64,000 nt of DNA, taken from Candidatus Nomurabacteria bacterium (GTDB lineage Bacteria > Patescibacteriota > Patescibacteriia > UBA1558 > GWA2-36-10). The stretch's first letter is position 1; each line of letters begins with the position of its first letter. A program made the position numbers and the translations under genes. Positions 1 through 61,207 of this stretch are shown here, in pieces. The stretch lies in contig JACKFO010000002.1 in NCBI GenBank assembly GCA_020632415.1, positions 322,732-386,731 of the forward strand. Reading direction: 5' to 3'. The notes beneath the pieces were generated by a model. The model saw only the letters and a program-made list of their open reading frames with translations. It was not told the origin of the DNA and searched no databases.

Positions 1-591
1 CTTAACTAAAGATTTATGAATAGAAATATAAAGCTGAACGTTTTTTTCTCTTTCTCTCAAAGTATCACCACTGAACTTGACTCGTGGCTTGACCATCTGA
101 TACATCGTTTCAATCACGCTATCTTCAATGTCCTCTGGATTCAAAAGCATGTCGATTTCACAGGCCATCACACCAATGATCCAATCAAAATATTGTTTTC
201 TTTCTTTGCCTTGATAAAGATCATTGAGCATCACAAACAAATCACCGTAGCGACGAATGATCTGCGCCACTTCCAAAATCATTTTTTCTGGAATAGTATT
301 GTTTGGCAAATATTTGGAACGAATCAAATCCTCGATCAAACCTTTGGCAATATGCGGTTTTAAAGTTTCTAGAATCAAACGACGGCGTAAATTTCTTTCA
401 ATTGCAAAACGTCTCAATAAATGAGCCTCTTTAAAATCAACGCTATTGCGTAATTTTTCATAGACAAAAGTCACTCTTGAAGTAATATCTTCAACTTCAA
501 TCTTGTTTTCATCCTCTAAAATTGTACGACGTCTTTGGTAAATTTTGTCCAATTTCTGATACAAATCAACGATACTTGGGGAAATTTCCAT
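1..591 (-). CDS. hypothetical protein, N-terminal 197 codons only (gene runs off left edge)
   Basis: Open reverse frame from ATG (complement of 589-591; MEISPSIVDLYQKLDKIYQRRR...) to position 1 with no stop. It is missing from the ORF track only because it has no in-window stop. Track ORF 16..363(+) is its antisense shadow. Confidence 0.5.
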   Translation of the reverse strand, partial: MEISPSIVDLYQKLDKIYQRRRTILEDENKIEVEDITSRVTFVYEKLRNSVDFKEAHLLRRFAIERNLRRRLILETLKPHIAKGLIEDLIRSKYLPNNTIPEKMILEVAQIIRRYGDLFVMLNDLYQGKERKQYFDWIIGVMACEIDMLLNPEDIEDSVIETMYQMVKPRVKFSGDTLREREKNVQLYISIHKSLVK

Positions 592-23529: not shown

Positions 23530-24513
23530 TCAGGGACGCCAGTAGTAGCGCACAGCCGCGACTGCCTGCTCGAGACGACTGTCGTAGCCGACCTGGAAGC
23601 TCAAAGAGCCGATCAGCTCCCCAGAATTCTTCCAGCCAAGAAAAGCCTGCCAGGCTTCAGCTTGCTCACCGAAGTCAAATCCTGAGGTCAAGAAGAACTT
23701 CTGCTTTGCTCCCAGACGGAGAAAATCCCAGTTTCCCTTCAAGACGTAGAGATTGTCCGGAGCGATCCATCCGTCCGGATGGAAGCGATAGCTCCAGCCA
23801 CCGGCCAAAGCCAAAGACTGCCAGGGTCGAGTGTAGAGCGAGACGTTATGACCAATCTCTTCTTCCCAGCTCAAGTGAAGATCGAAAATGCTCCAGTAGC
23901 CATTGAGGTGGTAGTTGCCGACCCAAACATCACTATCCAGCATCGGAAAAGCGCTGAACAAACTATCCAGACCTCGTGCTGGCCATGTACGACGAGCGCC
24001 ATAGCCCAAAGCAGCAGAAGCGCCAAAAGGTCGACCTCCCAACTGATCATACCAAGCGACTTGCAAGGCTGCTCCTGAGATACTCCCGGTAAAAGGCAGC
24101 TCAGCGTCATTTGGTCGCAAGAGAGTTGCTTCGTAGGCCTGAGGAAAGCTTTCCAAAGCCAGGTTTCGATACTGTCCAGCGCGCAGACTGAAATTCCCAT
24201 TGGAATTTCGCCAATCGTGCTGAACAAAGGCCTCGCTCAAGAAAGCCTCAGCCTGATCACCGTAAGCAATCTGACCTTCAGCCTTGAACGAAAAAACCTT
24301 GTTTTGACCACTTGAAACCCAAGCTTGTCCTCCTAGAAGGCTGTATGACCAGCGGGCTTGCAAGCTATCTTCGAAGCTGGTATTCAAACCAGCGCCTCCA
24401 TAGAAGTCCAGCTGGAAACGTTCCACCTGATCATCACTGGAAGCAGCAGCAAAAGCTGTGGACTGGGTCCAGAGGATCAACAGACCCAACAGCCAAAAAC
24501 TCAAAGTTTTCAT
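23530..24513 (-). CDS. orphan secreted protein with outer-membrane beta-barrel-like sequence pattern (G+C-rich cassette B1)
   Basis: GGAGGA SD. Signal peptide MKTLSFWLLGLLILWTQSTAFA/AASS. Many short alternating hydrophobic/aromatic strands (FQLDFYGGAG, RWSYSLLGG, FSFKAEGQIAYG, LQVAWYDQ, SLSFQVGYD) and an aromatic C-terminus VRYYWRP. G/C-ending codons. Confidence 0.6.
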   Translation of the reverse strand: MKTLSFWLLGLLILWTQSTAFAAASSDDQVERFQLDFYGGAGLNTSFEDSLQARWSYSLLGGQAWVSSGQNKVFSFKAEGQIAYGDQAEAFLSEAFVQHDWRNSNGNFSLRAGQYRNLALESFPQAYEATLLRPNDAELPFTGSISGAALQVAWYDQLGGRPFGASAALGYGARRTWPARGLDSLFSAFPMLDSDVWVGNYHLNGYWSIFDLHLSWEEEIGHNVSLYTRPWQSLALAGGWSYRFHPDGWIAPDNLYVLKGNWDFLRLGAKQKFFLTSGFDFGEQAEAWQAFLGWKNSGELIGSLSFQVGYDSRLEQAVAAVRYYWRP

Positions 24514-24620
24514 CGCCTTTTCCTCCGCGTTGCTTGATTTTGTTGTTATTTTCTGATTTCGTTTGTGTCAAAGATCGGGAGAACTTCATGTTTAAAAAAA
24601 CATGAAATATCCAACTGTAA

Positions 24621-24649
24621 ACCATACACCAAAATCTATTATTTGTCAA
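24621..24649 (-). promoter_or_regulatory. promoter of cassette B1
   Basis: Minus strand TTGACA (24644-24649), 17 nt, TATGGT (24621-24626). A 5' UTR of about 110 nt contains the palindrome at 24585-24606. Confidence 0.55.
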
Positions 24650-24679
24650 GTCTAGCTTATTTTAGCCCAAAAATAACTC

Positions 24680-24708
24680 TTGACAAATATTTTAAAATAG
24701 TATATAAT
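24680..24708 (+). promoter_or_regulatory. promoter of cassette B2
   Basis: TTGACA 24680-24685, 17-nt spacer, TATAAT 24703-24708. Confidence 0.65.
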
Positions 24709-24753
24709 ACTTTGTTACGTACACTGACAACCAAAACCACACGGAGGAACACC

Positions 24754-25500
24754 ATGAACCGCATTCACAGCTTCTGCCTGCTGATGCTCCTGTGCATCAG
24801 CGCCGCCTTCGCCGACGCCTACGAAGAACCCATCAAGAACACCAACCCCGACACCACGGCCACCACGGCGTCCTGGGAAGCGAACACGCTTCCGATGGAA
24901 CCCTGGCTGATCAAGTGGGACGCCAACGGCCAGCCGGTCAAGACGCATCGTCTGAGCTTCGAAATTTCCGGCAGCGACACCCTGTACTACAAGGGTGACT
25001 GCCTGATCGAAGATCAGCGCGTCCGCTGGTATCCGAAGTCCCTGCAGGACAACCGGATGCACTCGGCCTACTGGACCGCTCGTCGCAGCATGTACGCGGC
25101 ACTGCTCGTCGCCGGCTACCAAGCGCGCGAAGCCGACTCGCTCTGCCGCACGCTACAACCCGTGATCGATGGCCAGAAGGACAGTCGTCCCCTGCTCAAC
25201 CAGATCATGGCCGCCGCCCCGAACATCCACAAGCTGAACATGCTGGAACATGAGCTCCTGGCAATGCAACAGCAGATGGTCACCGTCGACATGCTCAACG
25301 AGTTCGCCGGAGACATCGACGCCGCCCTGTCCGAACACGTCAACTTCGCCGAAACGGTGGATGACTTCCTCAATCAGACACGAGGAAAGAAGTGGGGACG
25401 CGCCAAACGTGCTCACTCCCTCTTCCTGACATCGGCGCCGCCGAGCGAGGAACGATGCCTTCCGTCAACGGAAGAGATGCCCATGCCGAGCAAGTTCTGA
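24754..25500 (+). CDS. orphan secreted protein, 248 aa (G+C-rich cassette B2)
   Basis: GGAGGA 5 nt upstream of ATG 24754. Signal peptide MNRIHSFCLLMLLCISAAFA/DAYEE. Strongly G/C-ending codons. The track start at 24565 runs through the promoter and is rejected. Confidence 0.6.
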   Translation: MNRIHSFCLLMLLCISAAFADAYEEPIKNTNPDTTATTASWEANTLPMEPWLIKWDANGQPVKTHRLSFEISGSDTLYYKGDCLIEDQRVRWYPKSLQDNRMHSAYWTARRSMYAALLVAGYQAREADSLCRTLQPVIDGQKDSRPLLNQIMAAAPNIHKLNMLEHELLAMQQQMVTVDMLNEFAGDIDAALSEHVNFAETVDDFLNQTRGKKWGRAKRAHSLFLTSAPPSEERCLPSTEEMPMPSKF

Positions 25501-25622: not shown

Positions 25623-28600
25623 TTATTTTTTATACAAATTGTCTAAATCTACTTGATTACGAACTTCAATTGTTGGATCACCCAAAGGATCTAATCTAAA
25701 TAATTTACCGGCTTCTTTAACAAAGGTATTTCCTTCAGTATCAGTAAAAGTAGCGCCATCATTCATTTGTGATAATTGATCAAAACCACGGTGTACTTCA
25801 CCAGCTATTTCTGTGCTTGTCTGAGCTGCCTCAGCAACATTCTCGCTAACTGGAACTTGTTCAGGTATCGCCTCAGCTGACACTGGCTCTACCGGCTCTT
25901 CAATTGGCGTCTCAAAACTTTCTGGTTCCATAGCCCCAGCTGTCTCCCTAGCTTTCCTAGCTTGATCCAGACTTTCACTTAAACCAGACGCTTTTGGTTC
26001 TGGAATATTATCTGCTACTGGCGGCAAATTTTCAGACGCAGCTTTTGCCGCTGTTTTTACTGGCTCTGATAAAACTGAATTATCCAACCAAGATTCTAAA
26101 ACTTTTTCTTTCAAAGTCCAAGTATTGCCACTCAAGTCGTCTAACATATATTCTTCTTGACCAAATAAATGTTTTTTTACTAAATGCACAAAAGCATAAA
26201 ATTGACGACCATTTTCATCTTTGACTAAACGCGCCTCCCAAGCTTTACCAGGCAAAGAATCGCTAGTAGCTACTTTATCAAAAGCGGAAGTGTATCTTTC
26301 TACTGTTTCCAAATCATTTAGATCAGAAATCTTTACATTTGGCGCTTGTTCTACATATTTCAAAAATATCGCTGCTTTATTACTATCTGGTGTAAAAGAA
26401 TTTGGATAATAATCCTCCAAAAATTGCCTTTGTACCTCTGGAGAACTTTCAAAAACATGATTAACTAAAGCGTCAATTTCTTGTGGATTATTTTCTACTG
26501 CTCTTAAGAGCTCTTCTGAATAAGGAGTCTTACCAGCTAAAAATCCATCCAAATTAGCGGTAGCTACTTCTGCTGAGCCTGTTGTTTCTGGAACAAAATT
26601 ATGTCCACTATGATCTACCATTTTACTCAAATCATCTACTGTAACATCATGATTGTCTGCAAGACGATAAATTGTTTGACCATTGATTTCTACCTGCTCA
26701 ACTGGCTGATGATCAAAAGACCAATTATGCACTTCTCCATCATGAGACAACCAATCCGTACCATGTGCTCTAACTTCAGCAGCGATTTGGTCAACGCTTT
26801 CCGTACTGATTCTCACTCCATGTTTTGCTGCCTCGGCAATTGCTTCATTATTGGCAACAATATTTTGCATTTGCTCAGCAGTCAAAGCGCCTGATTTTTG
26901 CGCAGCTTCACTAATGTTTTCTGGATTAAATAAATTACCAAAATTTAACTTCGTGCCAAGCTTTAGCTGATCAACATCACCGTCAATACCAAAAGCTTTT
27001 GGATCAGCGACAATTTTATCTTTAAAATAATCAATAAAATAAGTACGCTGAGCTTCATTTAGATTGTTCCAATTTGGCACTCTAGCTCTTAACTGATCTT
27101 CTGTTAGATTCCAAACATTATCTCCTTTACTAACTACGGCTTCAACACTAATTCCTCCTTGATCTGGGATATTCTCTGCCACACCATGTGGTACTGGAGC
27201 GTCTGATTCTAAAGTTGGTCTTAAATAAGCTGTTTCTGGAGCGCCAGGATCAGCAACTTCCTGAGCGTGCTCTGCTGCGCCTTGCACCTGATCTGCGCCA
27301 TCAGCGTGACTTAATTTATCCAAAACTCTTGAACCAGCTATTGCTCCAACTGTCAAACCTAAAACCGCTGAGACGCCATATCGTCTCATAGCCTTCATAC
27401 GTGATTTATCTTGTGCGCTAGATAAAGTCTCTACCGTCTTCTGTTCTGTTTTTAAAGTCTCGCTGACAATATCAATTTTAACAGAATTAATTCTTTCATT
27501 ACCATTAACTATAGGCTCTCCTATAATTTCATCGAGAGCGATTTTATCTTGGAATTCCGACTTTAATCTTCGAAAATACTCTTCTTGAATCAAGTTCACA
27601 AAAGCTGCTTGCTCATCACCAAAACGACCAGCCTCAGCTAAACCAACTCTTTTATCTAAACTCAAAATTCTTAATCGCGCTAATTCTTTAGCTAATTCCT
27701 CTGTTGGATATTGCTCTTGATTTCCTAACACCTCTCTCCATTCAACGATATCTTCGTCTGTAATTTTTCCTGCTTCTGATTTTTTGCTTTTGAATCCAAG
27801 ATTTTTCATCTTGTCAATCAAACCTTTTTGTCCGCCCCATTCACTTCTTTTATCAATTGTTGCTTCAGCAAACATAAAAGTGCCCGTAGAAGACATCACG
27901 CCACGTGCTGTCAAAATACCAGCAACAACTCCAGTTGTACCACCGCTAAACAACAAACTAGCGCCAAACAAACCAACACCTAAACCTAATCTAATTTTTC
28001 CGGTTTTACGCCAAAATTCTTTAAATTTTCCAATAAAATTTTTATCCAAACCACTGGCTTCAGCGTCAATCGCCACTTCTTCGGCTTGTAACAAAGAAAT
28101 GTATTCGCTGGCCAATATGTTTTTAAGCTGTTCTATCGTAATCTTACCCTCAGTAAAATCTTGTAATAATTCTCCTTTTTTATTTTCCAAACTATCATGA
28201 ACATGCTTGTCTTTGGCCTCTTGGTAAGCTTGAGCTATTTTTTCAAATTTGCTTTTACCTCCACGAACAACCTGGCCTCTTTTATATAAAGCTTTTACAA
28301 AGGCTGAACGCAACTCATCTAAATTACCAGGAACAACATCTTCATAAGACTCATTTTCAATCTCCTCTGAAATTCCTCCGTCAATCACCTCCTCAACGCC
28401 TTCTTCAGTGCGATGGCTTTCTTCTGAATCTTCTTCAGTGGCGCCTTCTGCTGCTTTTTCAATTTCTTGACTAAAACGAGCAATAATATCATCCAACTTA
28501 TCTTCTAATTCCTCTCTTGGCAAACTTCTGTCTAAACTACTGATTTCATCAAGAAACTTAGCTTGAATTTCTGGATGTTTTTGACCGTCTTCATAATGAT

Positions 28601-30722
28601 TAATATATTCTTCATAGTCTTCAAATAATTTAACCATTTCATCATTTACCGGCTGTTTTTCTTGATCATTATCTCGTAATAATTCTAATTTCTGATCCAA
28701 AGCCTGATTAATCTCTCCAATTCTTTGATTTAGTTCTGCGATAGTTAAATTTTGATCAAGGGCTTTTATTTCGGCAATTTTAGCCGCAACTAAACCCGCT
28801 GCTTGTTCAGCTTTATTTCCATAATCATCAGCTCTCAATTCAGCAAATGTCTGATCTAATTCTTTAGCTGCTTTAGTAATTAATTTGGTTTGTTCATTAT
28901 TAGATTCAACTTGAGTTTCTACTTGTTCGGCTCCCTCTGCCACTTGACCATCTGCAGAATCCGATGCCGCTGTAGTGGCAGCTTCTCTATTTCTGTGATC
29001 TAAAGCTTCCTGAATAGTATAAACTTTTTCATTTGTTGTATTTGTATCCATTCCACGATCATTAAAAACAAAATCTGGATATGCAGTGGCAATCTTTTGT
29101 TCTAATTCGCTTAACTCTTCTCCCTCGATAATTTTGATCATTACTCTTCTAACCGCATTAATTAGTTCAACTTGAATCACATAATCTGACATGCTTTCGA
29201 TCGGATCACCAAACTTCCAACCACCCGGATTAGTTAATTGATCATTGACAATTTTAGCAAATAATCTTTCATCATAAGCAAATCTCATGCGATCATAAAC
29301 CCCTGCGGTTGGTACCGAATCTGGAGCTTCTTCTTCCGCTGCTTCAGGAGCATCATCGATATTTGAATCTACTTCTTTAGGTTCTAATTTAGCAACTAAA
29401 TCTGGAGACAAAAGCTTCCAAATAACAAATGGCTCTTGGCCTTCAATTTTGACTTCAAATTTTACTTTTTTCCAACCCTTATATGCGTCTTTGATTTCTG
29501 CTGAAGTGATCAAAGCTGCTGGGCGTACTTCATTGCGCAAACCCAACTGTAACTCTCCAGAAAGCTCGGTTAATTCATTACCCATTAATTGATTTACAGC
29601 GTCTACTATACCATCAAGATGCTCTTTGGCATCAAACTCAACCTGACCATCACCCATGATCATCAAATCGACTACTTTTGCTGCAAAGTCTTTTGGCATT
29701 AAAAAACTTTCCATCCCAGGTAGACCCTTAACAAAAGCTGAATCTACTTTAACTAATTCGTCAGTACCAAATTCTTCCATCGCACCTTCTTTTTCTGGAT
29801 CAAAATTTTCTATGCCTTGAAATTTAAACTCTGTTGGTATATTTATAATCACCTCCATCATTGCTCCGCTGCGCTCACCCAAACCTCTTTCAAATTCTTC
29901 AAGAGAAAAATCTAGCCTCCTTAAATCCTCTGGAACTTCGACAACAGGACTAACAGGCTTTTGACCAACGATTTTTGATGCTTCTTGATCAACAGGATTA
30001 GTACCAGTAACAGCACTATCTGGACGCAAGGCTGCTAAAAACTTCGGAAATTTATCAACCACATCTTCTATTTCTGCTGCTTTCAATCTTTTTAAACCAG
30101 ACAAATTACTTGCTAGCTTATCTTGTGCTTTTTTAAGAATTTCCTCATCAACACCCGAAGCTCTAAATTTTCTAAAATCACCACGCAAAATAGGCTCTGC
30201 TGCTTTTTCAATCGCAGCAAGAAATTCACGGCCGATATTTTGCATTTTTTCTTCAACGGCAGCTGAATCATCAAAAAAATGAGGATCATTAATTTGCTTC
30301 AATAAATCCTCTCTCTTGCTTTCAGCTAATAAATTGCTGTCTTTAATAGCCCTTTCTAATCTATCAAGCTCCTCTGCTAAGCGCTCCTGATCTGCATCAA
30401 AATCAGCTTCTTTTCCAAATACAGCATGTGCTAAATTATCAACTAATTCTTTAGTGGATTTGCCCGCTTGCTCTGCTTCAAGCCGCAAGCTAGGATCTTT
30501 AACTTCTGCTTTAAACTCATCAACATTTTGATCAACTTTTTGCTCAGTTTCTTGCGCAACTTGCAAAACTTGATCTGGTCGAGCTTCTGTCTCTGCTCCT
30601 GCTGTTAAATTTTCTTGACGATCTTGAGCTAAAAGCGCATCAATTCTTTCTGGATCAATTGCGCCAGGAATATTCTCTCCATTCCTTTTTTCTCTTAAAT
30701 GCCTGGATTGTTTATCACCCAT
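25623..30722 (-). CDS. giant orphan protein, 1699 aa, acidic coiled-coil-rich with central hydrophobic segments
   Basis: Single uninterrupted frame in backbone-type A+T-rich DNA. Hydrophobic stretches LGLGVGLFGASLLFSGGTTGVVAGIL and YGVSAVLGLTVGAIAG. No family recognised with confidence. Confidence 0.8.
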   Translation of the reverse strand: MGDKQSRHLREKRNGENIPGAIDPERIDALLAQDRQENLTAGAETEARPDQVLQVAQETEQKVDQNVDEFKAEVKDPSLRLEAEQAGKSTKELVDNLAHAVFGKEADFDADQERLAEELDRLERAIKDSNLLAESKREDLLKQINDPHFFDDSAAVEEKMQNIGREFLAAIEKAAEPILRGDFRKFRASGVDEEILKKAQDKLASNLSGLKRLKAAEIEDVVDKFPKFLAALRPDSAVTGTNPVDQEASKIVGQKPVSPVVEVPEDLRRLDFSLEEFERGLGERSGAMMEVIINIPTEFKFQGIENFDPEKEGAMEEFGTDELVKVDSAFVKGLPGMESFLMPKDFAAKVVDLMIMGDGQVEFDAKEHLDGIVDAVNQLMGNELTELSGELQLGLRNEVRPAALITSAEIKDAYKGWKKVKFEVKIEGQEPFVIWKLLSPDLVAKLEPKEVDSNIDDAPEAAEEEAPDSVPTAGVYDRMRFAYDERLFAKIVNDQLTNPGGWKFGDPIESMSDYVIQVELINAVRRVMIKIIEGEELSELEQKIATAYPDFVFNDRGMDTNTTNEKVYTIQEALDHRNREAATTAASDSADGQVAEGAEQVETQVESNNEQTKLITKAAKELDQTFAELRADDYGNKAEQAAGLVAAKIAEIKALDQNLTIAELNQRIGEINQALDQKLELLRDNDQEKQPVNDEMVKLFEDYEEYINHYEDGQKHPEIQAKFLDEISSLDRSLPREELEDKLDDIIARFSQEIEKAAEGATEEDSEESHRTEEGVEEVIDGGISEEIENESYEDVVPGNLDELRSAFVKALYKRGQVVRGGKSKFEKIAQAYQEAKDKHVHDSLENKKGELLQDFTEGKITIEQLKNILASEYISLLQAEEVAIDAEASGLDKNFIGKFKEFWRKTGKIRLGLGVGLFGASLLFSGGTTGVVAGILTARGVMSSTGTFMFAEATIDKRSEWGGQKGLIDKMKNLGFKSKKSEAGKITDEDIVEWREVLGNQEQYPTEELAKELARLRILSLDKRVGLAEAGRFGDEQAAFVNLIQEEYFRRLKSEFQDKIALDEIIGEPIVNGNERINSVKIDIVSETLKTEQKTVETLSSAQDKSRMKAMRRYGVSAVLGLTVGAIAGSRVLDKLSHADGADQVQGAAEHAQEVADPGAPETAYLRPTLESDAPVPHGVAENIPDQGGISVEAVVSKGDNVWNLTEDQLRARVPNWNNLNEAQRTYFIDYFKDKIVADPKAFGIDGDVDQLKLGTKLNFGNLFNPENISEAAQKSGALTAEQMQNIVANNEAIAEAAKHGVRISTESVDQIAAEVRAHGTDWLSHDGEVHNWSFDHQPVEQVEINGQTIYRLADNHDVTVDDLSKMVDHSGHNFVPETTGSAEVATANLDGFLAGKTPYSEELLRAVENNPQEIDALVNHVFESSPEVQRQFLEDYYPNSFTPDSNKAAIFLKYVEQAPNVKISDLNDLETVERYTSAFDKVATSDSLPGKAWEARLVKDENGRQFYAFVHLVKKHLFGQEEYMLDDLSGNTWTLKEKVLESWLDNSVLSEPVKTAAKAASENLPPVADNIPEPKASGLSESLDQARKARETAGAMEPESFETPIEEPVEPVSAEAIPEQVPVSENVAEAAQTSTEIAGEVHRGFDQLSQMNDGATFTDTEGNTFVKEAGKLFRLDPLGDPTIEVRNQVDLDNLYKK

Positions 30723-31338: not shown

Positions 31339-32688
31339 CTAGTCGACGTTCACTGTGCCAACAGCGCCACCGCCTCTGACCTTGATATTGGAGTTTTTCT
31401 TCTCAGCCAAATCTCCAATCTCTTGCAGACAACGCAGACGCTGTTCATAGGTTGCTGTTTCGGGGTTCAGGCCTAAAGCCGCCAAAGCAGCATCAATCTC
31501 TGCTGTGAAAGCCTCGCCATCTGCCTTGCGAAGACGAATCTTACGCTTGGATTCAGACTCAGCGGCGGCCTCAGCATTTTGAGCTTTTTCGATCTCTGGA
31601 TCTCTAGTGGGATCACCAAAGTCCAAAGTATCGAAAGCATGCCCAACGGCCTCCAGCAACTTGCCATTAAGTTCGGTTTGCTTCGAATGATCAAAGGTTA
31701 CGTCCAAACCCTTGACCTGATCGAAACTCATAGAGCTCATGACACTTATCACATCATTGACAATTACTGTGCCAGCTACCTCAACCGAAGTCGACTGATC
31801 CTCAGACGACATCCGCAGAAAACGAGAAGGATGCTGACAAGTAATCACGCCAACTCGAAGATCAATATTGGCAGTAGAGTTGTCTCCTAGCGGCACAAAA
31901 CCAGTCTTGTATTTGCGTTCTATGGCCTCATAACGCAACAGAGTGACGCTATAGAGAAACATCCAAACTGGAATTCCTACTCGGCCCAGATACCAAGGCA
32001 AGATTGGCGCATTTATGTCACTATCACGATGATTGCCGTGATTAGATCCATAAAAATACCAATCGCCAAATTTCTTCCTGATCGGACCTCTCGGAATCAG
32101 AAATGGCCTATTCATGAACTTCGGAACCCAGCGCTCGGTCACTTCCGGCACCATGATCGAACCAATACTCCAGAAAATTGGTAAAGCCAAGAGAAAGACT
32201 GGCTGCCAGATACCAACCATAGCGCAGGTGAAAAAGCCGACAGCAGAAATTACTCCGAACCCGTAAGGTCTGGCCGGAGGCGGAGCTGGTTTTTGACCCT
32301 TGACTACATCACGCTTATCAATGAAAAAGCTGCCGGTCCAAGCTCGGCGGAAAGCGATCACGCCGAAGCCTAGCAAAACAAGGCTGGCGATCAGCTTCCA
32401 CCAAGGGAATTCTCCGTTGAAATTAAGCCAGGAGAAAAGCTGCCAGTTCCACGGCTTCAGCAACAAAGCTGCGTACCAAAGAACAAGTCCAAGCTGCAAA
32501 GCGATCCGAGTCCTCTTATCCTTAGATGTTTTAGGCTTCTTATCCTTGTCCAGATCAACGAGCCAGCTATTCAAGCTCCAGTAGATACTGAGCGGCAAGG
32601 CAAAGAAGATCAGGAAAATAGCGATGCCGTGAACAAATTGTGGGTCTTTCCATCCCACACGGCTGATGATTTTCTCCAAGGCTTCCAT
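31339..32688 (-). CDS. orphan polytopic membrane protein with soluble C-terminal domain, 449 aa (G+C-elevated cassette C)
   Basis: AAGGAG SD 7 nt from the ATG. About 6-7 Trp/Phe-rich hydrophobic helices in the first 250 aa, a PAPPPARP linker, and a charged Ala/Glu-rich C-terminus. G+C is visibly above the flanks. Confidence 0.65.
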   Translation of the reverse strand: MEALEKIISRVGWKDPQFVHGIAIFLIFFALPLSIYWSLNSWLVDLDKDKKPKTSKDKRTRIALQLGLVLWYAALLLKPWNWQLFSWLNFNGEFPWWKLIASLVLLGFGVIAFRRAWTGSFFIDKRDVVKGQKPAPPPARPYGFGVISAVGFFTCAMVGIWQPVFLLALPIFWSIGSIMVPEVTERWVPKFMNRPFLIPRGPIRKKFGDWYFYGSNHGNHRDSDINAPILPWYLGRVGIPVWMFLYSVTLLRYEAIERKYKTGFVPLGDNSTANIDLRVGVITCQHPSRFLRMSSEDQSTSVEVAGTVIVNDVISVMSSMSFDQVKGLDVTFDHSKQTELNGKLLEAVGHAFDTLDFGDPTRDPEIEKAQNAEAAAESESKRKIRLRKADGEAFTAEIDAALAALGLNPETATYEQRLRCLQEIGDLAEKKNSNIKVRGGGAVGTVNVD

Positions 32689-49893: not shown

Positions 49894-49962
49894 ATGTTCA
49901 AAAAGTGGTTTCCTAATCAAAGCAACCAGAGAGAGTCGACGTCTTCAACGCGAGTTGAGTAA
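49894..49962 (+). CDS. possible upstream micro-ORF, 22 aa (MFKKWFPNQSNQRESTSSTRVE)
   Basis: AGGAG 9 nt upstream of the ATG. It ends 17 nt before the main cassette E ORF. Confidence 0.3.
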   Translation: MFKKWFPNQSNQRESTSSTRVE

Positions 49963-49979: not shown

Positions 49980-50429
49980 ATGAGTCCCAAGACCAAATTT
50001 TACTGCTGGCTGGCGGCGATGACCGTCATCACTCTGACGACTCTTTTTGTTGTCAACGCAGTGAGTGGTAATCCCACATTAGCCATATCCGCCGCATTCG
50101 GCGCGTTCGCTATCACCGTAATAGTCGCGCTCGCTGTCGCCACATCATCTGTCGTGCTCGCCGGACTCATCGCACTCCTGATCGCCAGCGGAGGCGGAGT
50201 GGTCGCGTGCGCTGTCGCACTCCTGATCACCGCCAGAGCCGGAGTGGTCGCGAACGTCGACGCATTCGCCGGACTCGCCGCCGCATCCTTAGCATTCGCC
50301 ATATCCGTCGTAATTATCTTCATCCTTTCTGCTTATAAGAGCACTCTTTCCAAGAGGCATATCCTTCTTTCAATGACGGTGGTATCCATTGTCATCGCCA
50401 CCCCGATGCTCTACCTCGCACTGCAGTAG
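49980..50429 (+). CDS. orphan Ala/Val/Ile-rich polytopic membrane protein, 149 aa (G+C-rich cassette E)
   Basis: AAGGAGGG SD. Almost entirely hydrophobic sequence with an internal duplicated segment. The antisense ORF 50000..50323 is an artefact of high G+C. Confidence 0.55.
   Translation: MSPKTKFYCWLAAMTVITLTTLFVVNAVSGNPTLAISAAFGAFAITVIVALAVATSSVVLAGLIALLIASGGGVVACAVALLITARAGVVANVDAFAGLAAASLAFAISVVIIFILSAYKSTLSKRHILLSMTVVSIVIATPMLYLALQ
50170..50252. repeat. internal tandem duplication (about 45-nt period) inside the cassette E ORF
   Basis: TCGCACTCCTGATC at 50170 and 50215; GGAGTGGTCGCG at 50196 and 50241. Gives peptide IALLIASGGGVVAC / ALLITARAGVVAN. Confidence 0.8.
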
Positions 50430-54015: not shown

Positions 54016-54558
54016 ATGCAAGCCTTTCATGAGTGGTTCGTCCACGAACTCGAGCAACGGCAGAACACGATCGACAATCCCTGTCCGATCGAAGTCGAAG
54101 TCAATGAATCGGGTACGGTACTCGGTACCCTACCCGACAACCTGAAGCCCCTCTTCTTCCTGATGCTCGACCTGATCGATGAGCGCAACGAGTCCGCCAC
54201 CGCGCTCCACGACTGGATCGTGGAACACCCCGGATTCCACCCGGCACACCCCGAAGATGCCAAGCCGGAACTGATCGGGGAATTCCAGGAGAAGAAGATC
54301 AATCACCGAGTCGCCTGCGACAAGCTGAAGACGATCACGTCCTACTTCTGGAGCAGCATCCACCACATCTTCCCCGACAGCCACAACCACAACAAGATGG
54401 AGGTCTGCAAGGACTGGCAGATCGTCTGCGGAGATGATGAAGGTGACATCAAGATCGATATCATCGGCATCGGCGGCATTCCCTCCGACTTCGTCGGTGG
54501 CTCCACCGTCGATCCCTTCGGCGACCTCCTCGGCAGCTTCTTCCGTCGAGGACACTGA
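54016..54558 (+). CDS. orphan acidic His-rich cytoplasmic protein, 180 aa (G+C-rich cassette F)
   Basis: GGAG 5 nt upstream of ATG 54016 (MQAFHEWFVHELEQ...). G/C-ending codons. Three antisense track ORFs here are artefacts of high G+C. Confidence 0.55.
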   Translation: MQAFHEWFVHELEQRQNTIDNPCPIEVEVNESGTVLGTLPDNLKPLFFLMLDLIDERNESATALHDWIVEHPGFHPAHPEDAKPELIGEFQEKKINHRVACDKLKTITSYFWSSIHHIFPDSHNHNKMEVCKDWQIVCGDDEGDIKIDIIGIGGIPSDFVGGSTVDPFGDLLGSFFRRGH

Positions 54559-54691: not shown

Positions 54692-56515
54692 ATGTCTACT
54701 TTAGAACAAATAAAATTAGTTTTACAGAAAAATATTTCTGAAATCCTAAATCAACAGCTAGAATTGGATCAAATAGGACTTGATCTTCCGCCAAATGAAA
54801 TGTTTGGTGATTATGCTTTTTCTTGTTTTGAATTAGCAAAAATTCTAAAAATCAACCCTCAAGAAGTCGCTGAAAAATTAAACAACAAGTTTATTGCTGA
54901 TCAAACTATTCTAGCCACCAAAAATGCCGGGCCATATTTAAATTTAGAACTAAATCCACAATTTTTAGCCAAAGAAACACTCCAGGAAATCAGTCAAACA
55001 AAAAACTTTGGCCAAAACACTTTTGGTCATGGTAAAAAAGTCTTGATTGAATTTTCCGGACCAAACACCAACAAACCTCAACATTTGGGTCATGTCCGTA
55101 ACGATATTTTAGGACAAGCAATGGTCAATCTTTATCGTGCTTGTGGTTTTGAAGTAATTGCTTGCAATATTATCAATGATCGTGGAATTCATATTGTCAA
55201 AAGCATGTTGGCTTACCAAAAATGGGGCGACAATCAAACTCCAGAAAGTAGTAAAATTAAAGGTGATCATTTTGTAGGTAATTTTTATGTCAAATTTGAG
55301 CAAGCTTTAAAAGCTGAACGAGATGATTATTATCAAAAAAATAAAATCGATCTGACCAAACTAAAAGCCCAAGAACAACGTCAAGCAGAAGATGCTTTCT
55401 TACAACAATCGCCACTAATGCAAGAAGCTCACGAAATGCTAAAAAAATGGGAAGCCGAAGATCCAGAAACACGAAATCTTTGGTCAAAAATGAATTCTTG
55501 GGTTTATCAAGGTTTTGAGGAAACCTATCAAGCTCTTGGCATTAAATTTGACCAAGTTTATTATGAAAGCCAAACTTATCTTTTGGGCAAAGAAATTATC
55601 AAACTTGGTTTAGAAAAAAAAGTTTTCTTTCAAAAAGAAGATAATTCAATTTGGATTGATTTAAGCTCAGAAAACTTAGATCAAAAATTGGTTTTACGTG
55701 CTGATGGCACTTCTGTTTATATTACTCAAGATTTAGGCATGGCAAAACAACGCCATGATCAATACAAGTTTGATCAAATGATCTATGTCGTGGCCAATGA
55801 GCAAAATTATCATTTTCAAGTACTATTTGCGACTCTCAAAGCGATTGGTTTTCCTTGGGCAGAAAATTTACACCATTTAAGCTACGGAATGGTCAATCTT
55901 CCTGATGGTAAAATGAAATCTCGTGAAGGCAAAGTTGTTGATGCTGATGATCTTATTTTGGAAATGAAAAATAAAGCCAGCGAAGTAATGGCAAAAGCTA
56001 CTAAACAAGTAGCAAGCTCTGTTGAACAAAAAATAAAAAGTTCCGAACAAGTTGGTTTGGGCGCTCTCAAATTTTTCTGTCTTTCAACTAGCCCACAAAA
56101 AGATATCACTTTTAATCCAACAGAAAGCATTTCTTTTGATGGTTATACTGGACCGTTTATTCAATACACGCACGCTAGAATTAATAATATTTTAACTAAA
56201 GCTGAAAAAATCCCACAATTTGCAGATTTAAATTTTAATCTAGAAATCTCCGCTGAAGAAAAAAAATTATTAAAAATTTTACTCAATTTTCCAGATAGCA
56301 TCAAAAATAGCGCTCTTGATCACAACCCAGCGACCCTTACTCAATACCTATTTGACTTAGCTAAAACTTTTAACAATTTCTACCAACAACATTCGGTTTT
56401 ACAAGCCGAGAGTCCTGATTTACAACAATTCAGATTATTTTTGGCAAATGCTACCAAACAAATCTTAAGCTCTGGCTTAGAACTCTTAGGCATCGAAGCC
56501 CCAGAGACAATGTAA
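54692..56515 (+). CDS. argS: arginine--tRNA ligase
   Basis: PNTNKPQHLGHVRN (HIGH region), GKMKSREG (KMSK-like), C-terminal anticodon-binding domain; 607 aa. Confidence 0.92.
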   Translation: MSTLEQIKLVLQKNISEILNQQLELDQIGLDLPPNEMFGDYAFSCFELAKILKINPQEVAEKLNNKFIADQTILATKNAGPYLNLELNPQFLAKETLQEISQTKNFGQNTFGHGKKVLIEFSGPNTNKPQHLGHVRNDILGQAMVNLYRACGFEVIACNIINDRGIHIVKSMLAYQKWGDNQTPESSKIKGDHFVGNFYVKFEQALKAERDDYYQKNKIDLTKLKAQEQRQAEDAFLQQSPLMQEAHEMLKKWEAEDPETRNLWSKMNSWVYQGFEETYQALGIKFDQVYYESQTYLLGKEIIKLGLEKKVFFQKEDNSIWIDLSSENLDQKLVLRADGTSVYITQDLGMAKQRHDQYKFDQMIYVVANEQNYHFQVLFATLKAIGFPWAENLHHLSYGMVNLPDGKMKSREGKVVDADDLILEMKNKASEVMAKATKQVASSVEQKIKSSEQVGLGALKFFCLSTSPQKDITFNPTESISFDGYTGPFIQYTHARINNILTKAEKIPQFADLNFNLEISAEEKKLLKILLNFPDSIKNSALDHNPATLTQYLFDLAKTFNNFYQQHSVLQAESPDLQQFRLFLANATKQILSSGLELLGIEAPETM

Positions 56516-56522
56516 CTTTTTC

Positions 56523-56555
56523 ACCAAGGGGAACAAATTTCCCCTTGGCATCCCC
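56523..56555 (+). terminator. hairpin after argS (CCAAGGGGAA-CAAAT-TTCCCCTTGG)
   Basis: 10-bp GC-rich stem. The T-run is separated from the stem by CATCCCC, so efficiency is uncertain. Confidence 0.5.
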
Positions 56556-56560
56556 TTTTT

Positions 56561-56589
56561 ATTGACAAGAAAAGAGAAATACCTTATAA
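56561..56589 (+). promoter_or_regulatory. promoter for tRNA-Lys
   Basis: TTGACA 56561-56566, 17 nt, TATAAT 56584-56589. The tRNA starts 21 nt later. Confidence 0.7.
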
Positions 56590-56610
56590 TCAAGTTCGTA
56601 ATTTTATAAT

Positions 56611-56687
56611 GCGCCTATAGCTCAGCCTGGTAGAGCAGTTGCCTTTTAAGCAAACGGTCGAGGGTTCGAATCCCCCTGGGCGCACCA
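56611..56687 (+). tRNA. tRNA-Lys (UUU), CCA encoded
   Basis: GCGCCTATAGCTCAGCCTGGTAGAGCAGTTGCCTTTTAAGCAAA...GGTTCGAATCC...TGGGCGCACCA. One mismatch each in the anticodon and T stems. Confidence 0.8.
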
Positions 56688-56703
56688 CTCACTTAAAATT
56701 AAT

Positions 56704-56728
56704 CAAGGTGCTCTGACCTTGTTTTTTT
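56704..56728 (+). terminator. terminator after tRNA-Lys
   Basis: CAAGGT-GCTCTG-ACCTTG followed by TTTTTTT. Confidence 0.7.
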
Positions 56729-56729
56729 A

Positions 56730-56757
56730 TTGACAAAATAAATAAGTAGTATAAACT
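56730..56757 (+). promoter_or_regulatory. promoter of micro-cassette G1
   Basis: TTGACA 56730-56735. Best -10 is TAAACT at 56752-56757 (16-nt spacer). Weaker than the other cassette promoters. Confidence 0.4.
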
Positions 56758-56811
56758 TAATAAGTAAAATAAGTCCTTCCACCCGTCCATCTTAAACCAA
56801 GGAGGTATGCC

Positions 56812-56898
56812 ATGCATGCCAACCACGCCCCGCCCACGATGAGCACCGATCTCGTTTCGCCCCTGCGCCGTCAGCTCAAGAGCACCGAAATCGTCTAG
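56812..56898 (+). CDS. micro-ORF G1, 28 aa (MHANHAPPTMSTDLVSPLRRQLKSTEIV)
   Basis: AAGGAGG 6 nt upstream. G+C-rich. Shares KSTEIV and the flanking DNA with G2. May instead be a small RNA. Confidence 0.4.
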   Translation: MHANHAPPTMSTDLVSPLRRQLKSTEIV

Positions 56899-56935
56899 AG
56901 CCACCAAGGCAGACGAGGCTATTGAGCTTCACCTA

Positions 56936-56966
56936 CGGCTCGCGCCACGCGCGAGCCGCTTTTTTT
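56936..56966 (+). terminator. terminator of G1
   Basis: CGGCTCGCGC-CAC-GCGCGAGCCG followed by CTTTTTTT. 39-nt block nearly identical to the G2 terminator. Confidence 0.85.
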
Positions 56967-56975
56967 ATCCAAAGT

Positions 56976-57004
56976 TTGACAAAATTAGAAATATATCATA
57001 AAAT
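56976..57004 (+). promoter_or_regulatory. promoter of micro-cassette G2
   Basis: TTGACA 56976-56981, 17 nt, TAAAAT 56999-57004. Confidence 0.55.
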
Positions 57005-57102
57005 AAAAACTCAAGGAGTGTGAGTATTCTCAAGACTGACTTGGGAATCTCCCTCAACAACCATCAACCGTGGCTGTCCGCAAGGACGAAAGGAGCCGGT
57101 CT

Positions 57103-57201
57103 ATGAAGACCCCCTGCACCGCCATCATCACCCAGAAGAGCACGGAGATCGTGCAGACCACCGAGAAGAACGGCCAGCTCAAGGCCATCGAGCAGATCTA
57201 G
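57103..57201 (+). CDS. micro-ORF G2, 32 aa (MKTPCTAIITQKSTEIVQTTEKNGQLKAIEQI)
   Basis: AAAGGAG 6-7 nt upstream. G+C-rich with G/C-ending codons. 5' UTR of about 95 nt. Confidence 0.45.
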   Translation: MKTPCTAIITQKSTEIVQTTEKNGQLKAIEQI

Positions 57202-57247
57202 CTCCAGCGGGAGTAAATCACTCGAAGCCAAGAAGCTGAAACACCCA

Positions 57248-57278
57248 CGGCTCGCGCCACGCGCGAGCCGCTTTTTTT
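57248..57278 (+). terminator. terminator of G2
   Basis: Same CGGCTCGCGC-CAC-GCGCGAGCCG + T-run as G1 (one mismatch over 39 nt including flanks). Confidence 0.85.
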
Positions 57279-57366
57279 ATTGCATAAATTGTGTTTAAAC
57301 TGTCAATAAAATTGCCTTGAAAAAAGCTAAAAAATAAGGTAAGCTAACTCTACTAAAACAGGCTTT

Positions 57367-58782
57367 ATGGACAAAATGCCCCCACAAAATCTAGAAGCAG
57401 AAAGCTCATTATTGGGTGCTTTGTTGATCGACAAAGAAGCAATTATCAAGGTTGCAGACGTAATTAATGCTCGTGATTTTTATAGCAACAAACACGGCAT
57501 GATTTATGAAACCATTTTAGACCTATTAGAACAACATGAGCCAGTTGACATTGTTTCGGTTTCCAATCGTTTAAATGAAAAAAAACAACTAGAAACTATC
57601 GGCGGAAAAACTTATATTGCCGAACTTACTGCTGCGGTTCCAAATTCTTCACACGTCAAATCTTACGCTAATATCATTCGCAAAAAATCTATTTTGCGTC
57701 AGCTAGAATCTGCTGCTGCTGAAATTTCAGAAATTTCTTTTTCGGAAGTTGATGACGTTGATAAAACTTTGGATAAAGCTGAACAAAAACTTTTTGCTAT
57801 CTCTCAAAATTCACTCAAACAAAATTTTGTTCAAGTCAAAAATATTTTGACCGACACTTTTAATCGTATCGATGAATTACATAAATCTGGTGGTGCCGGT
57901 GTCCGCGGCGTTCCTTCTGGCTACCCAGACATTGATCGACTTTTATCTGGCTTCCAAAAATCAGACTTAATAATTTTAGCTGCTCGACCTTCGGTCGGTA
58001 AAACAACTTTTGCTCTTGATTTGGTCAGAAATATTGCGATCAAATCCAAAGTACCAGTCGGCATGTTTTCTTTGGAAATGTCCAAAGAACAGCTAGTAGA
58101 CAAATTACTTGCCGCTGAAGCTGGCGTTGATCTCTGGCGAATGCGTACTGGAAAACTTTCTGACAAAGAGGAAAACGATGATTTTCCGCGCATTGGACGA
58201 GCAATGGGAGTCTTATCTGAAGCACCAATTTTTATTGATGATTCCGCTAATTCAAATATCTTAGAAATTCGAACCAAGGCTAGACGTCTAAAAATGGAAC
58301 ATGGTTTAGGTTTTTTGGTGATTGACTATTTACAATTAATGGAAGGGCGAGACAGAGAAAATCGAGTTAATGAAATCTCTGAAATTTCTCGAGCTTTAAA
58401 ACAATTAGCCAAAGAGATTGACGTACCAGTACTTGCTTTGTCTCAATTATCTCGTGCTGTGGAAAACCGAAGTCCTGCTATTCCAAAACTAGCTGATTTA
58501 AGAGAATCAGGCTCAATTGAACAAGACGCTGACATTGTCATGTTTATCTATCGTAAATCAAAAGATAAGAGTCGTGACTGTCCAGAAGATGAAAAAAATT
58601 TGGCAGAAATTCACGTTGAAAAACATCGTAACGGACCAACTGGCATTGTCAATTTATTCTTTGATGAAAACAAGGTTACTTTCCGTAGCGTCGAAAGGGC
58701 CCAAAATGTCGGTACTCCGCCACCAGAAGAAATTGGCCCACCAATACAAACCAATGGCTGGCAAGATGCTCCTAATCAATAA
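57367..58782 (+). CDS. dnaB: replicative DNA helicase
   Basis: PPQNLEAESSLLGALLID N-terminus, Walker A ARPSVGKTTFAL, LVIDYLQLM, SQLSR motifs. Confidence 0.93.
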   Translation: MDKMPPQNLEAESSLLGALLIDKEAIIKVADVINARDFYSNKHGMIYETILDLLEQHEPVDIVSVSNRLNEKKQLETIGGKTYIAELTAAVPNSSHVKSYANIIRKKSILRQLESAAAEISEISFSEVDDVDKTLDKAEQKLFAISQNSLKQNFVQVKNILTDTFNRIDELHKSGGAGVRGVPSGYPDIDRLLSGFQKSDLIILAARPSVGKTTFALDLVRNIAIKSKVPVGMFSLEMSKEQLVDKLLAAEAGVDLWRMRTGKLSDKEENDDFPRIGRAMGVLSEAPIFIDDSANSNILEIRTKARRLKMEHGLGFLVIDYLQLMEGRDRENRVNEISEISRALKQLAKEIDVPVLALSQLSRAVENRSPAIPKLADLRESGSIEQDADIVMFIYRKSKDKSRDCPEDEKNLAEIHVEKHRNGPTGIVNLFFDENKVTFRSVERAQNVGTPPPEEIGPPIQTNGWQDAPNQ

Positions 58783-60074: not shown

Positions 60075-60182
60075 ATTTTTTATAATTTTTCTAAAAAAGT
60101 ACTCATAGATTAGCAAAAAATCATTATATTGTCAACCTCAGGTATAAAAATATCCCAATTGCCCTGCATAAAATCAAATGGG

Positions 60183-60211
60183 TTGACAAAATATATATTA
60201 TATGATATAAT
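60183..60211 (+). promoter_or_regulatory. promoter of cassette H
   Basis: TTGACA 60183-60188, 17 nt, TGaTATAAT (-10 at 60206-60211). Confidence 0.65.
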
Positions 60212-60260
60212 ACCAAAGAATTGGACATTTTCACAACAAAAGCAGCAGTTGGAGGAAATC

Positions 60261-60737
60261 ATGAATTGGCGAAAAATTGCACTTCTGTGCCTACTTCTTG
60301 CTTTGCCGATGTGGATGCTGATCCGTTCTATGCTGCCTTCGCAGTCAGTTATGGAACAGCTCCAGGAGATCGCCGATCGAACTCCCATTCACTTCGCTTT
60401 GTTGGTCGATGGACAGAGAATCGAGTATTTCGGCTTTGCCATCGATACCAGCACAGCAGCGGATACGAGTTTCGTCGAAAATCTCTACTTCTACGATCAA
60501 GTCGTGATCTGCAACATTCCAGGAGAGAACCAGTACCTCGAAGTACTCAAGGACACCCTGGATACGATCGACCCTCTGGGCACAGTCAAAGATCACGCTC
60601 CATTGGTCGGAGGCGACTACATCATCGAAGCCTACGATGCTTGGACGGATTCCCTCAAGTTCAGAGCGCGAATTCGCGCCGAACACATTGACGGAGAACC
60701 GTACATCTTCGATGATCAGAACCTTGTCAACAACTGA
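60261..60737 (+). CDS. orphan secreted or membrane-anchored protein, 158 aa (G+C-rich cassette H)
   Basis: GGAGGA SD 6 nt from ATG 60261. N-terminal hydrophobic segment MNWRKIALLCLLLALPMWML. G/C-ending codons. Overlapping track ORFs 60221..60691(+) and 60345..60746(-) are rejected. Confidence 0.55.
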   Translation: MNWRKIALLCLLLALPMWMLIRSMLPSQSVMEQLQEIADRTPIHFALLVDGQRIEYFGFAIDTSTAADTSFVENLYFYDQVVICNIPGENQYLEVLKDTLDTIDPLGTVKDHAPLVGGDYIIEAYDAWTDSLKFRARIRAEHIDGEPYIFDDQNLVNN

Positions 60738-60758
60738 CGCCCCCAATCCCCCCGGATC

Positions 60759-60810
60759 GATCCCGGCACAACACAGCAGCAGCTGTCGCGTGTCGGGATC
60801 ATTTTTATTT
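60759..60810 (+). terminator. terminator of cassette H abutting the sufU stop codon
   Basis: GATCCCGGCAC-20 nt-GTGTCGGGATC (one G-U pair) followed by ATTTTTATTT. Confidence 0.6.
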
Positions 60811-61207
60811 ACATCAAATCATCCCAAGTTCGCAAGGGATTTTTTTGTTCGGCTAAAATAATATTTTGCACTGTGATCAGGCCCAACAAAACACATTTAT
60901 AGCGCCGCTCACCAACTGGTAACCCCAACATATCCAGTAAGCTCTGATAATTAATAGCTAAAACTTCTGTAATATTTTGACCAATCAACTTTTCACTTAA
61001 AATTGACATTGCCGCGACCGAAATCGCACAACCATTAGCTTCAAATTTTAAGTCCTCTATCTGATCATCTTTAATTCTCAGATCAACGGCAAGTTGGTCG
61101 CCACAAGAGCGATTCATTTGTTTGCCAGAAATTTTTGGCTCAGCAAGACGACCGTGATTGCGTGGCTGTTTATAATGTTCGATAATATTTTGAGCGTAAA
61201 GATCCAT
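60809..61207 (-). CDS. sufU: SUF-system Fe-S cluster scaffold (SufU/NifU-like)
   Basis: LYAQNIIEHYKQPRNHG, CGDQLAVDL, ANGCAIS and KC motifs (three Cys ligands). Confidence 0.88.
   Translation of the reverse strand: MDLYAQNIIEHYKQPRNHGRLAEPKISGKQMNRSCGDQLAVDLRIKDDQIEDLKFEANGCAISVAAMSILSEKLIGQNITEVLAINYQSLLDMLGLPVGERRYKCVLLGLITVQNIILAEQKNPLRTWDDLM

Follow-up and report, generated by a model that had tools for sequence, protein, structure and literature searches.

Two tandem candidate micro-gene units in the tRNA-Lys/dnaB spacer of a Candidatus Nomurabacteria chromosome

Anatomy of the tRNA-Lys/dnaB spacer

The stretch of DNA analyzed here (64,000 nucleotides, 36.1% G+C, referred to below as the window) comes from a metagenome-assembled genome of Candidatus Nomurabacteria, recovered from activated sludge. 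Its dnaB gene, whose product is NCBI MCB9802751.1, is located on an 842,326-bp contig with locus tags H6761_, and is preceded by cassette G, two consecutive small units that fill the spacer between a tRNA-Lys gene and dnaB. Protein accessions run consecutively, with no gap, from argS to dnaB, and therefore no annotated gene is present between tRNA-Lys and dnaB; the NCBI annotation pipeline (PGAP) called nothing in this spacer. The surroundings of cassette G are core chromosome (argS, tRNA-Lys, dnaB, ybaB, recR, and the suf operon), and mobile-element genes (integrase, transposase, phage) were not found beside the cassettes examined.

The same DNA was found in an independent short-read (Illumina) assembly (Logan, SRR12358676). 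One contig of that assembly carries argS, tRNA-Lys, and G1, the open reading frame (ORF) of the first unit, and ends within the first copy of a 39-nt block with which both units terminate; another contig begins within the second copy and continues through dnaB. Contig ends inside both block copies are what a repeated 30-mer would be expected to cause. The Illumina assembly is 100% identical to the window over G1, and agrees with it over the junctions. We therefore conclude that the points where A+T-rich DNA meets G+C-rich DNA are real, and an assembly artefact is ruled out.

Unit 1 (56730-56968) and unit 2 (56976-57280) lie back to back, and the -35 box of unit 1 begins on the last base of the tRNA-Lys terminator (Table 1). 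Both are self-contained, as the original prediction had it: a promoter-like site, a Shine-Dalgarno (SD) sequence, a tiny ORF, and a terminator-like block were confirmed in each. Judged by hexamers close to the consensus and a spacing of 16-18 nt, the promoter-like sites are putative σ70-type promoters. The window contains 18 sites of the form TTGACA-N16-18-TAnnnT; 12 of these are found within the 10% of the DNA that is non-coding, and several of the remaining six fall in over-extended ORF starts. The extended TTGACAAA promoter type is also seen ahead of tRNA-Lys and further genes of the host, and the promoter type of the G units belongs to the host.

The 39-nt blocks lie exactly where they had been placed and differ, as claimed, at one position (38/39 identical). 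Each consists of a 10-pair stem (9 G-C pairs), a 3-nt loop, and a CTTTTTTTAT tail, i.e., the stem, short loop, and T run by which an intrinsic (Rho-independent) terminator would be recognized. The core pattern of the block occurs at these two sites only in the 64 kb, while shuffled sequences lead one to expect none. The tRNA-Lys terminator, unit 1, and unit 2 all have an identical 9-nt end, TTTTTTTAT.

Table 1. Features of the tRNA-Lys/dnaB spacer and ORFs with high G+C content at third codon positions (GC3); positions are those of the window.
Feature	Position	Strand	Details and basis
tRNA-Lys(UUU)	56611..56687	+	upstream edge of insertion spot; ARAGORN; Rfam tRNA 64.2 bits
tRNA-Lys terminator	56704..56730	+	tail TTTTTTTAT; terminator scan, sequence
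Promoter-like site, unit 1	56730..56757	+	TTGACA-16-TAAACT, 10/12 matches
Shine-Dalgarno, G1	56799..56805	+	AAGGAGG, 6 nt ahead of ATG; sequence
G1 ORF	56812..56898	+	28 aa, MHANHAPPTMSTDLVSPLRRQLKSTEIV
Former 3' part of G1 frame	56899..56929	+	three-frame translation; DNA alignment with 1-nt gap
39-nt block, copy 1	56930..56968	+	terminator-like; hairpin 56936-56958 + T7
Promoter-like site, unit 2	56976..57004	+	TTGACA-17-TAAAAT, 11/12 matches
Predicted 5' hairpin, unit 2 leader	57022..57051	+	minimum-free-energy and centroid structures; prediction
Shine-Dalgarno, G2	57090..57095	+	AAGGAG, 7 nt ahead of ATG; sequence
G2 ORF	57103..57201	+	32 aa, MKTPCTAIITQKSTEIVQTTEKNGQLKAIEQI; intact micro-gene (putative)
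39-nt block, copy 2	57242..57280	+	terminator-like; hairpin 57248-57270 + T7
Conserved dnaB-proximal non-coding block	57281..57366	+	downstream edge of insertion; 73-78% identity to L005-L008
dnaB	57367-58782		
GC3-rich ORF, unlettered	16-363		Pfam scan only, no family; no TTGACA promoter site found
GC3-rich ORF A	23530-24513		
GC3-rich ORF B	24565-25500	+	
GC3-rich ORF C	31339-32688		
GC3-rich ORF D	49980-50429	+	
GC3-rich ORF E	54016-54558	+	
GC3-rich ORF F	60261-60737	+	

The G+C content of G2 at first, second, and third codon positions (GC1, GC2, and GC3) is 0.39/0.36/1.00. All third positions (33/33) are G or C, the chance of which is ca. 2e-8 given the G+C content of G2 itself. The corresponding values for G1 are 0.59/0.45/0.83 (binomial p 0.014). 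GC3 is 0.24 in argS, 0.27 in dnaB, and 0.15-0.36 in the core genes of the window, so that the foreign composition ascribed to the units is borne out. In each unit the start codon of the ORF follows an SD sequence at proper spacing. The peptides do share the motif KSTEIV, and the three DNA differences within it are all synonymous third-position changes; G1 additionally contains an internal repeat in which MSTDLV (56839-) resembles KSTEIV (56878-) with conservative replacements.

At the RNA level, the whole transcripts would fold better than shuffled sequences (z -3.6 and -3.95), while the bodies without the terminators are modestly structured (z about -2). The Rfam search of the whole window at gathering score, and of 56500-57400 at E up to 10, returned tRNA only. 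Based on codon-position composition, the exclusively synonymous KSTEIV differences, the weakly structured RNA bodies, and the lack of an Rfam match, we read both G1 and G2 as protein-coding sequences by descent. Codon-position composition is decisive for this origin, not for present function.

Both peptides are hydrophilic (grand average of hydropathy -0.38 and -0.39 for G1 and G2, respectively) and contain no hydrophobic stretch, in agreement with the earlier statement that neither is hydrophobic. Tandemly duplicated tiny ORFs in intergenic regions, with signals for strong expression, are also a feature of type I toxin-antitoxin modules, but the toxins of these are hydrophobic membrane-spanning peptides, and an antisense or overlapping RNA accompanies them; a single weak antisense promoter-like site (9/12 matches) and no other was seen here. 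An AlphaFold2 model of G2, calculated from single-sequence input, is one helix comprising residues 4-30, with a predicted local distance difference test score (pLDDT) of 91.5. An amphipathic helix was considered for G2 and rejected, the hydrophobic moment being no higher than that of shuffled sequences. G2 has no signal sequence and no adjoining processing or export genes.

The two units are related by descent. In global alignment, only the promoter and the block align, and the leaders and ORF N-termini do not. Local alignment of the unit bodies gave a score of 31 versus 17.6 +/- 2.5 for dinucleotide shuffles, none of which (0/1000) reached 31, and the match is one colinear segment limited to the 3' halves of the units. 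The segment begins with CCCCTG, continues with AAGAGCAC(C/G)GA(A/G)ATCGT, and ends with CCACC(A/G)AG. The codon after KSTEIV is CAG in G2 and TAG in G1, with an extra nucleotide directly following in G1. Past the TAG and the 1-nt insertion, the G1 continuation IVQTTKADEAIE corresponds to G2 IVQTTEKNGQLKAIE, and the shifted G1 frame reads ATKADEAIEL, which matches G2 TTEKNGQLKAIEQI. Since similarity is restored in the shifted frame beyond the stop and the insertion, we conclude that G1 is a tandem paralogue, now decayed, of a gene resembling G2; the suggestion that it is a truncated paralogue was correct.

Insertion and turnover in the spacer

To compare the spacer with those of relatives, metagenome contigs were scanned with DnaB, yielding 80 related loci with 55-82% DnaB identity (referred to by L numbers below). 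In many relatives, tRNA-Lys adjoins dnaB. The gap between the two genes, where they have the same orientation, is 152 bp in L008, 183 bp in L007, 244 bp in L012, and 122 bp in L040, versus 679 bp in the window. The last ca. 85 nt before dnaB, presumably the dnaB promoter and leader, are conserved in L005-L008, while G sequence is absent from all 80 loci. At the empty sites of L008 and L007, the tRNA is followed by a hairpin, a T-run, AT, and then directly by the dnaB-proximal block. Based on the short gaps, the empty sites, and the presence of the conserved block without G, we conclude that the G pair is a lineage-specific insertion.

The spacer of the closest relative, L005 (DnaB 82% identical), is 536 bp long and holds a different micro-unit, which consists of a TTTACA-17-TAAGAT promoter, AAGGAGG, a 21-codon ORF, and its own terminator. 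GC3 of this ORF is about 0.64 by hand count, versus about 0.2 in the genes of its host. Among 16 promoters of the window, the one closest to the L005 promoter is that of G2 (29/40 positions; the other 15 score 18-25). A match between the block region and the L005 ORF was reached by 2 of 500 shuffles; being short and exposed to multiple testing, it was judged unusable. In L006 (6951-10000), the interval from argS/tRNA-Lys to dnaB contains ca. 3 kb with four ORFs, one encoding a PD-(D/E)XK nuclease and one G+C-rich (GC3 0.63), and tRNA-Lys is inverted. As the spacer is empty or holds one unit, two units, or ca. 3 kb in different relatives, it is a spot of gene turnover, and, by comparison of these loci, a putative insertion hotspot between orthologous core genes.

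The original prediction had drawn attention to the position of the units next to dnaB. As a functional link this adjacency does not hold up, since relatives have empty spacers and the ca. 85 dnaB-proximal conserved nucleotides lie beyond the G2 terminator. A tRNA-targeted integrative element was rejected as well: no repeat of the tRNA 3' end is present in 56500-57420, no integrase was found, and the only sequence shared by the borders is the 9-nt terminator end. The presence of this end in the tRNA-Lys terminator and in both units suggests that the units may have been inserted and duplicated at the terminator tail.

In L005, ca. 114 nt of moderately G+C-rich sequence (9465-9596) separate the end of tRNA-Lys from its terminator hairpin, so that a long 3' trailer would be expected on this tRNA. 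No Rfam match was found for this stretch.

Possible origins and roles of the units

We favor, with modest confidence, a reading in which cassette G is a tandem pair of moron-like, self-contained accessory micro-genes, a lineage-specific insertion in which one gene (G2) is intact and the other (G1) decayed. An insert of ca. 550 bp in a short spacer would then comprise two transcription units, each with a host-type σ70 promoter, a leader, an SD sequence, a micro-ORF, and an intrinsic terminator, both derived from one ancestral unit by tandem duplication. In unit 2, the 32-codon gene would have remained intact and encode a small, hydrophilic, and probably helical protein, and unit 1 would be decaying through the nonsense change and the frameshift past KSTEIV. 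Because each has its own promoter and strong terminator, a unit could be expressed alone, without reading into dnaB or disturbing tRNA-Lys. The spacer would be one of several spots between core genes of this genome at which orphan genes of high GC3 enter, are exchanged, and disappear, and the likeliest route is recombination following DNA uptake. Uptake of DNA is known in bacteria of the Candidate Phyla Radiation. For G2, the role we favor is that of a dispensable accessory micro-protein.

Units of this design have been described. A phage moron is a short coding region with its own promoter and terminator, inserted between two genes that adjoin each other in relatives, from which it deviates in composition (Juhala, Hendrix, and colleagues; PMC4378225). 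Both G units, as well as ORFs D, E, and F of the window, share all three defining points. However, morons are found in phage and prophage genomes and their ORFs are usually much longer, while cassette G resides in the core chromosome, with no phage genes, no relatives in viral collections, and no PHROG match, and its composition is shifted toward higher G+C, mostly at third codon positions. Cassette G would thus work like a moron but resides outside a phage or prophage.

Strain-specific gene turnover in spots flanked by core genes is likewise known (Oliveira et al. 2017, PMC5635113), and those hotspots that lack mobile-element genes have been linked to homologous recombination and natural transformation (PMC5635113). 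The G spot resembles these in being a fixed interval between core genes, next to a tRNA, with varying content and no recognizable mobile-element genes. The formal definition of such a hotspot requires a set of genomes from one species and counts of gains, while the loci compared here have 55-82% DnaB identity; the cargo of known hotspots is ordinary genes, and that of the G spot two ORFs of about 30 codons. The original prediction held that the units are not explained by any known feature class. This claim falls, since the units fit the definition of morons (PMC4378225) and turnover of strain-specific genes between core genes has been described (PMC5635113); the peptides are orphans, and the class itself is already known.

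With unannotated micro-proteins (<50 codons), G2 has in common its size, the SD sequence and ATG, the independent unit, the annotation miss, and the predicted single helix. Known micro-proteins are backed by conservation or experiment and many are inserted in the membrane, while G2 is hydrophilic, not amphipathic, and has no homologue. The original prediction had left a choice between small RNAs, micro-proteins, and precursor or signaling peptides. Codon-position composition and the synonymous KSTEIV differences favor a micro-protein, the weak structure of the RNA bodies speaks against a small RNA, and nothing nearby suggests peptide processing or export.

Several observations weigh against the moron-like reading. 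Neither a word-indexed search of 5.8 billion clusters nor an exhaustive HMMER search of 1.84 billion representatives revealed a homologue of G2, and conservation, the usual proof for a small ORF, is therefore missing; no homologue in which conservation of the frame could be followed was found in other genomes, and G1, the sole paralogue, has lost the frame. ORFs this short are seldom called, and protein databases are nearly blind to them. No detectable homology relates the body of the L005 micro-unit to G1 or G2, with alignments not above those of shuffled sequences. The blocks are 38/39 identical, while the homologous ORF segment is identical in 40/56 columns (p 0.0009), or 40/48 ungapped (p 0.04). 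Simple duplication followed by drift does not predict this conservation, which needs gene conversion or selection for the exact sequence. The amino-acid composition of G2, with its GC1 of 0.39 and GC2 of 0.36, is unlike that of a protein from a very high-G+C donor, and the helix predicted by AlphaFold2 from one short sequence is weak evidence. Finally, we infer transcription and translation of the units from their DNA, just as we do their mode of insertion and cellular role, and in the case of transcription and translation this also counts against the reading.

The remaining database searches were negative as well. G2 matched nothing among PDB sequences, Pfam, PHROGs, PADLOC, or NCBIfam; its tblastn search against 84 loci and the window gave chance-level matches only, and the DNA of the whole cassette had no match among phage and plasmid records. 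This lack of homologues would also be expected if the units were inert debris, i.e., foreign G+C-rich fragments captured in a tolerant spacer and now decaying, with promoter- and terminator-like sequences that have no selected role. G1 is visibly a pseudogene, and the spot is empty in several relatives, hence its content is dispensable. Yet near-consensus promoters, correct SD spacing, and perfect 10-bp hairpins have been kept, which is unlikely for drift at 36% G+C, the G2 frame is still open with its GC3 signal intact, and the same full design is found at other GC3-rich ORFs and in L005. We consider debris an unlikely explanation.

The units could also be genes of regulatory or dual-function small RNAs, with transcripts of ca. 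200 and 270 nt as the product and the ORFs incidental or secondary. Each unit runs discretely from promoter to terminator and is of suitable size, the leader of unit 2 is long (92 nt) with a predicted 5' hairpin, the whole transcripts fold better than shuffled sequences, and the best-conserved part of the units is the non-coding terminator block. The excess of folding is, however, mostly due to the terminator hairpin, no Rfam family matched even under the relaxed E-value, and the perfect three-base G+C periodicity of G2, its good SD spacing, and the synonymous KSTEIV differences are properties of coding sequence. A small RNA as the main product thus appears rather improbable.

A further alternative is that the 39-nt block is itself the repeat or mobile element (similar to repetitive extragenic palindromes, the end of a miniature inverted-repeat transposable element, an attC-like site, or a protein-binding site), and that the ORFs merely adjoin it. 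The block is a perfect palindrome and has stayed 38/39 identical while the remainder diverged. In chromosomal integron arrays, too, small ORFs unrelated to each other are combined with conserved hairpins on their 3' side. Their cassettes resemble the G units in carrying short, often orphan ORFs in the same orientation, each followed by a conserved palindrome, and in deviating in composition from the host. But integron cassettes are promoterless and depend on IntI, while the G units have promoters of their own; attC is an imperfect palindrome with R and L boxes, while the G palindrome is perfect, followed by T7 as in a textbook intrinsic terminator, and present in two copies (R/L boxes were judged by eye). 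No integrase or recombinase gene was found among the neighboring genes examined. As for the further copies of the block that the original prediction had thought worth searching for, the 64 kb hold the two of cassette G only, none was found in IMG/VR, and a scan of GTDB species representatives, which evidently do not include the source genome, returned two matches, both ordinary terminators with unrelated flanks in the G+C-rich Gemmatimonadaceae and Variovorax. Other cassettes of the window carry their own, different terminators. Moreover, the homology of the two units extends into the sequence ahead of the blocks, and the block was therefore copied as part of the unit. An autonomous repeat is, in our view, quite improbable.

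Least probable is a cis-acting role of the units, as leader peptides or attenuators, in the control of dnaB or the processing of tRNA-Lys: they do lie immediately ahead of dnaB, in the same orientation, with small ORFs followed by terminators as in attenuators, but each has its own promoter and a strong, unconditional-looking terminator, no alternative anti-terminator pairing stands out, dnaB retains its conserved upstream block past the last terminator, and relatives regulate dnaB without any G-like unit.

If the moron-like reading is correct, the locus shows that insulated add-on units are gained and lost at fixed spots between essential genes. Bacteria of the Candidate Phyla Radiation have tiny genomes in which most strain-specific genes are unknown, and ORFs of some 30 codons escape annotation pipelines. 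Micro-genes missed in this way can be revealed by a simple signal, namely third-position G+C periodicity against an A+T-rich background, combined with a promoter and a terminator. If expressed, G2 would add a family-less micro-protein to an unculturable organism. The genome-wide pattern of GC3-rich cassettes is a more interesting lead than the G locus, and, if it is truly maintained, would be informative on gene flow in reduced symbionts.

Other GC3-rich ORFs of the window

GC3 of the window ORFs is bimodal, with 0.15-0.36 in core genes and 0.46-1.00 in nine ORFs. These include seven ORFs larger than G1 and G2, with GC3 of 0.46-0.79 (A-F and an unlettered one, Table 1). None of A-F, G1, and G2 matched a Pfam family above the curated cut-off, and none had a match in PHROGs, PADLOC, or NCBIfam; the best that C gave was a weak Band_7 match (17 bits versus a cut-off of 23.6). 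TTGACA promoter sites are found beside each of A-F, and D, E, and F have private hairpin-T terminators.

E is absent from the corresponding interval in L005, L006, and L008, and is an orphan but for a 26%-identical protein that a search for donors revealed in L005. No viral relatives of E, A, or F were found, and the AlphaFold2 model of E (pLDDT 51.7) was too low in confidence for a fold search. In relatives from Parcubacteria with 55-58% G+C, codon-position values of dnaB are about 0.6/0.38/0.67-0.78, which is near those of E, B, and F. Such higher-G+C relatives, or their mobile elements, are plausible donors.

The F slot, between the gene of L21 and nifU, has a conserved promoter, leader, and terminator in the window (60117-60870) and in L005 (12825-13470). 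The ORFs in the slot are 158 and 140 aa long, respectively, and both begin with a hydrophobic N-terminus, but the best BLASTP E value between them is 0.39, which is not significant, and their GC3 is 0.60 versus 0.36. The payload has either been replaced or diverged very fast.

C has a syntenic orthologue in L085 (1717-3081), with 66% identity by BLASTP and 69% in global alignment; its neighbors, fpg and the gene of a DUF5663 protein, are 81% and 77% identical. GC3 of C is about 0.5 in both genomes, versus 0.21-0.25 in the flanking genes, although the individual third positions have for the most part been replaced. The unusual composition of C seems to be maintained, and not merely inherited from a recent transfer.

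Cassette G might be the smallest member of a distinct class of Nomurabacteria genes, in which self-contained promoter-ORF-terminator slots between core genes carry payloads that change much faster than the slot signals, and high GC3 is actively maintained and not the fading trace of a recent transfer. This is suggested by the conservation of F-slot signals around unrelated ORFs, the GC3 of C kept in L085, and the near identity of the G blocks, and we regard it as doubtful. If true, it would imply a specific process that shapes the accessory genome of reduced episymbiont bacteria, for instance repeated recombination with a gene pool of intermediate G+C content, or gene conversion that is biased at hotspots.

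Other features of these ORFs and their surroundings were also noted. Several of the larger GC3-rich ORFs look secreted or membrane-bound. A negative GC skew was found in all 4-kb bins of the window (1-64000), which makes the + strand the probable lagging strand over its whole length; B, D, E, G1, G2, and F lie on this strand, head-on to replication, and most core genes are on the - strand. The leader of D contains a 22-codon ORF with its own SD sequence (49894-49962), and the main ORF of D appears to encode a multi-pass membrane protein, with a 45-nt tandem duplication (80% identical) at 50170-50259. The long, GTG-started version of B (311 aa) overlaps divergent TTGACA promoters at 24649 (-) and 24680 (+), and the NCBI product is 248 aa long; the true start of B is probably downstream of the + promoter. 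The ORF that adjoins A and B (25623-30722; 1699 aa) resembles host genes in composition and has no Pfam domain. At the other end of the GC3 range (0.15), the gene at 716-1246 contains a 45-nt tandem repeat at 1115-1204, and its 176-aa product has an N-terminus rich in arginine and glycine as well as a treble-clef zinc finger (PF23477, E 1e-16).

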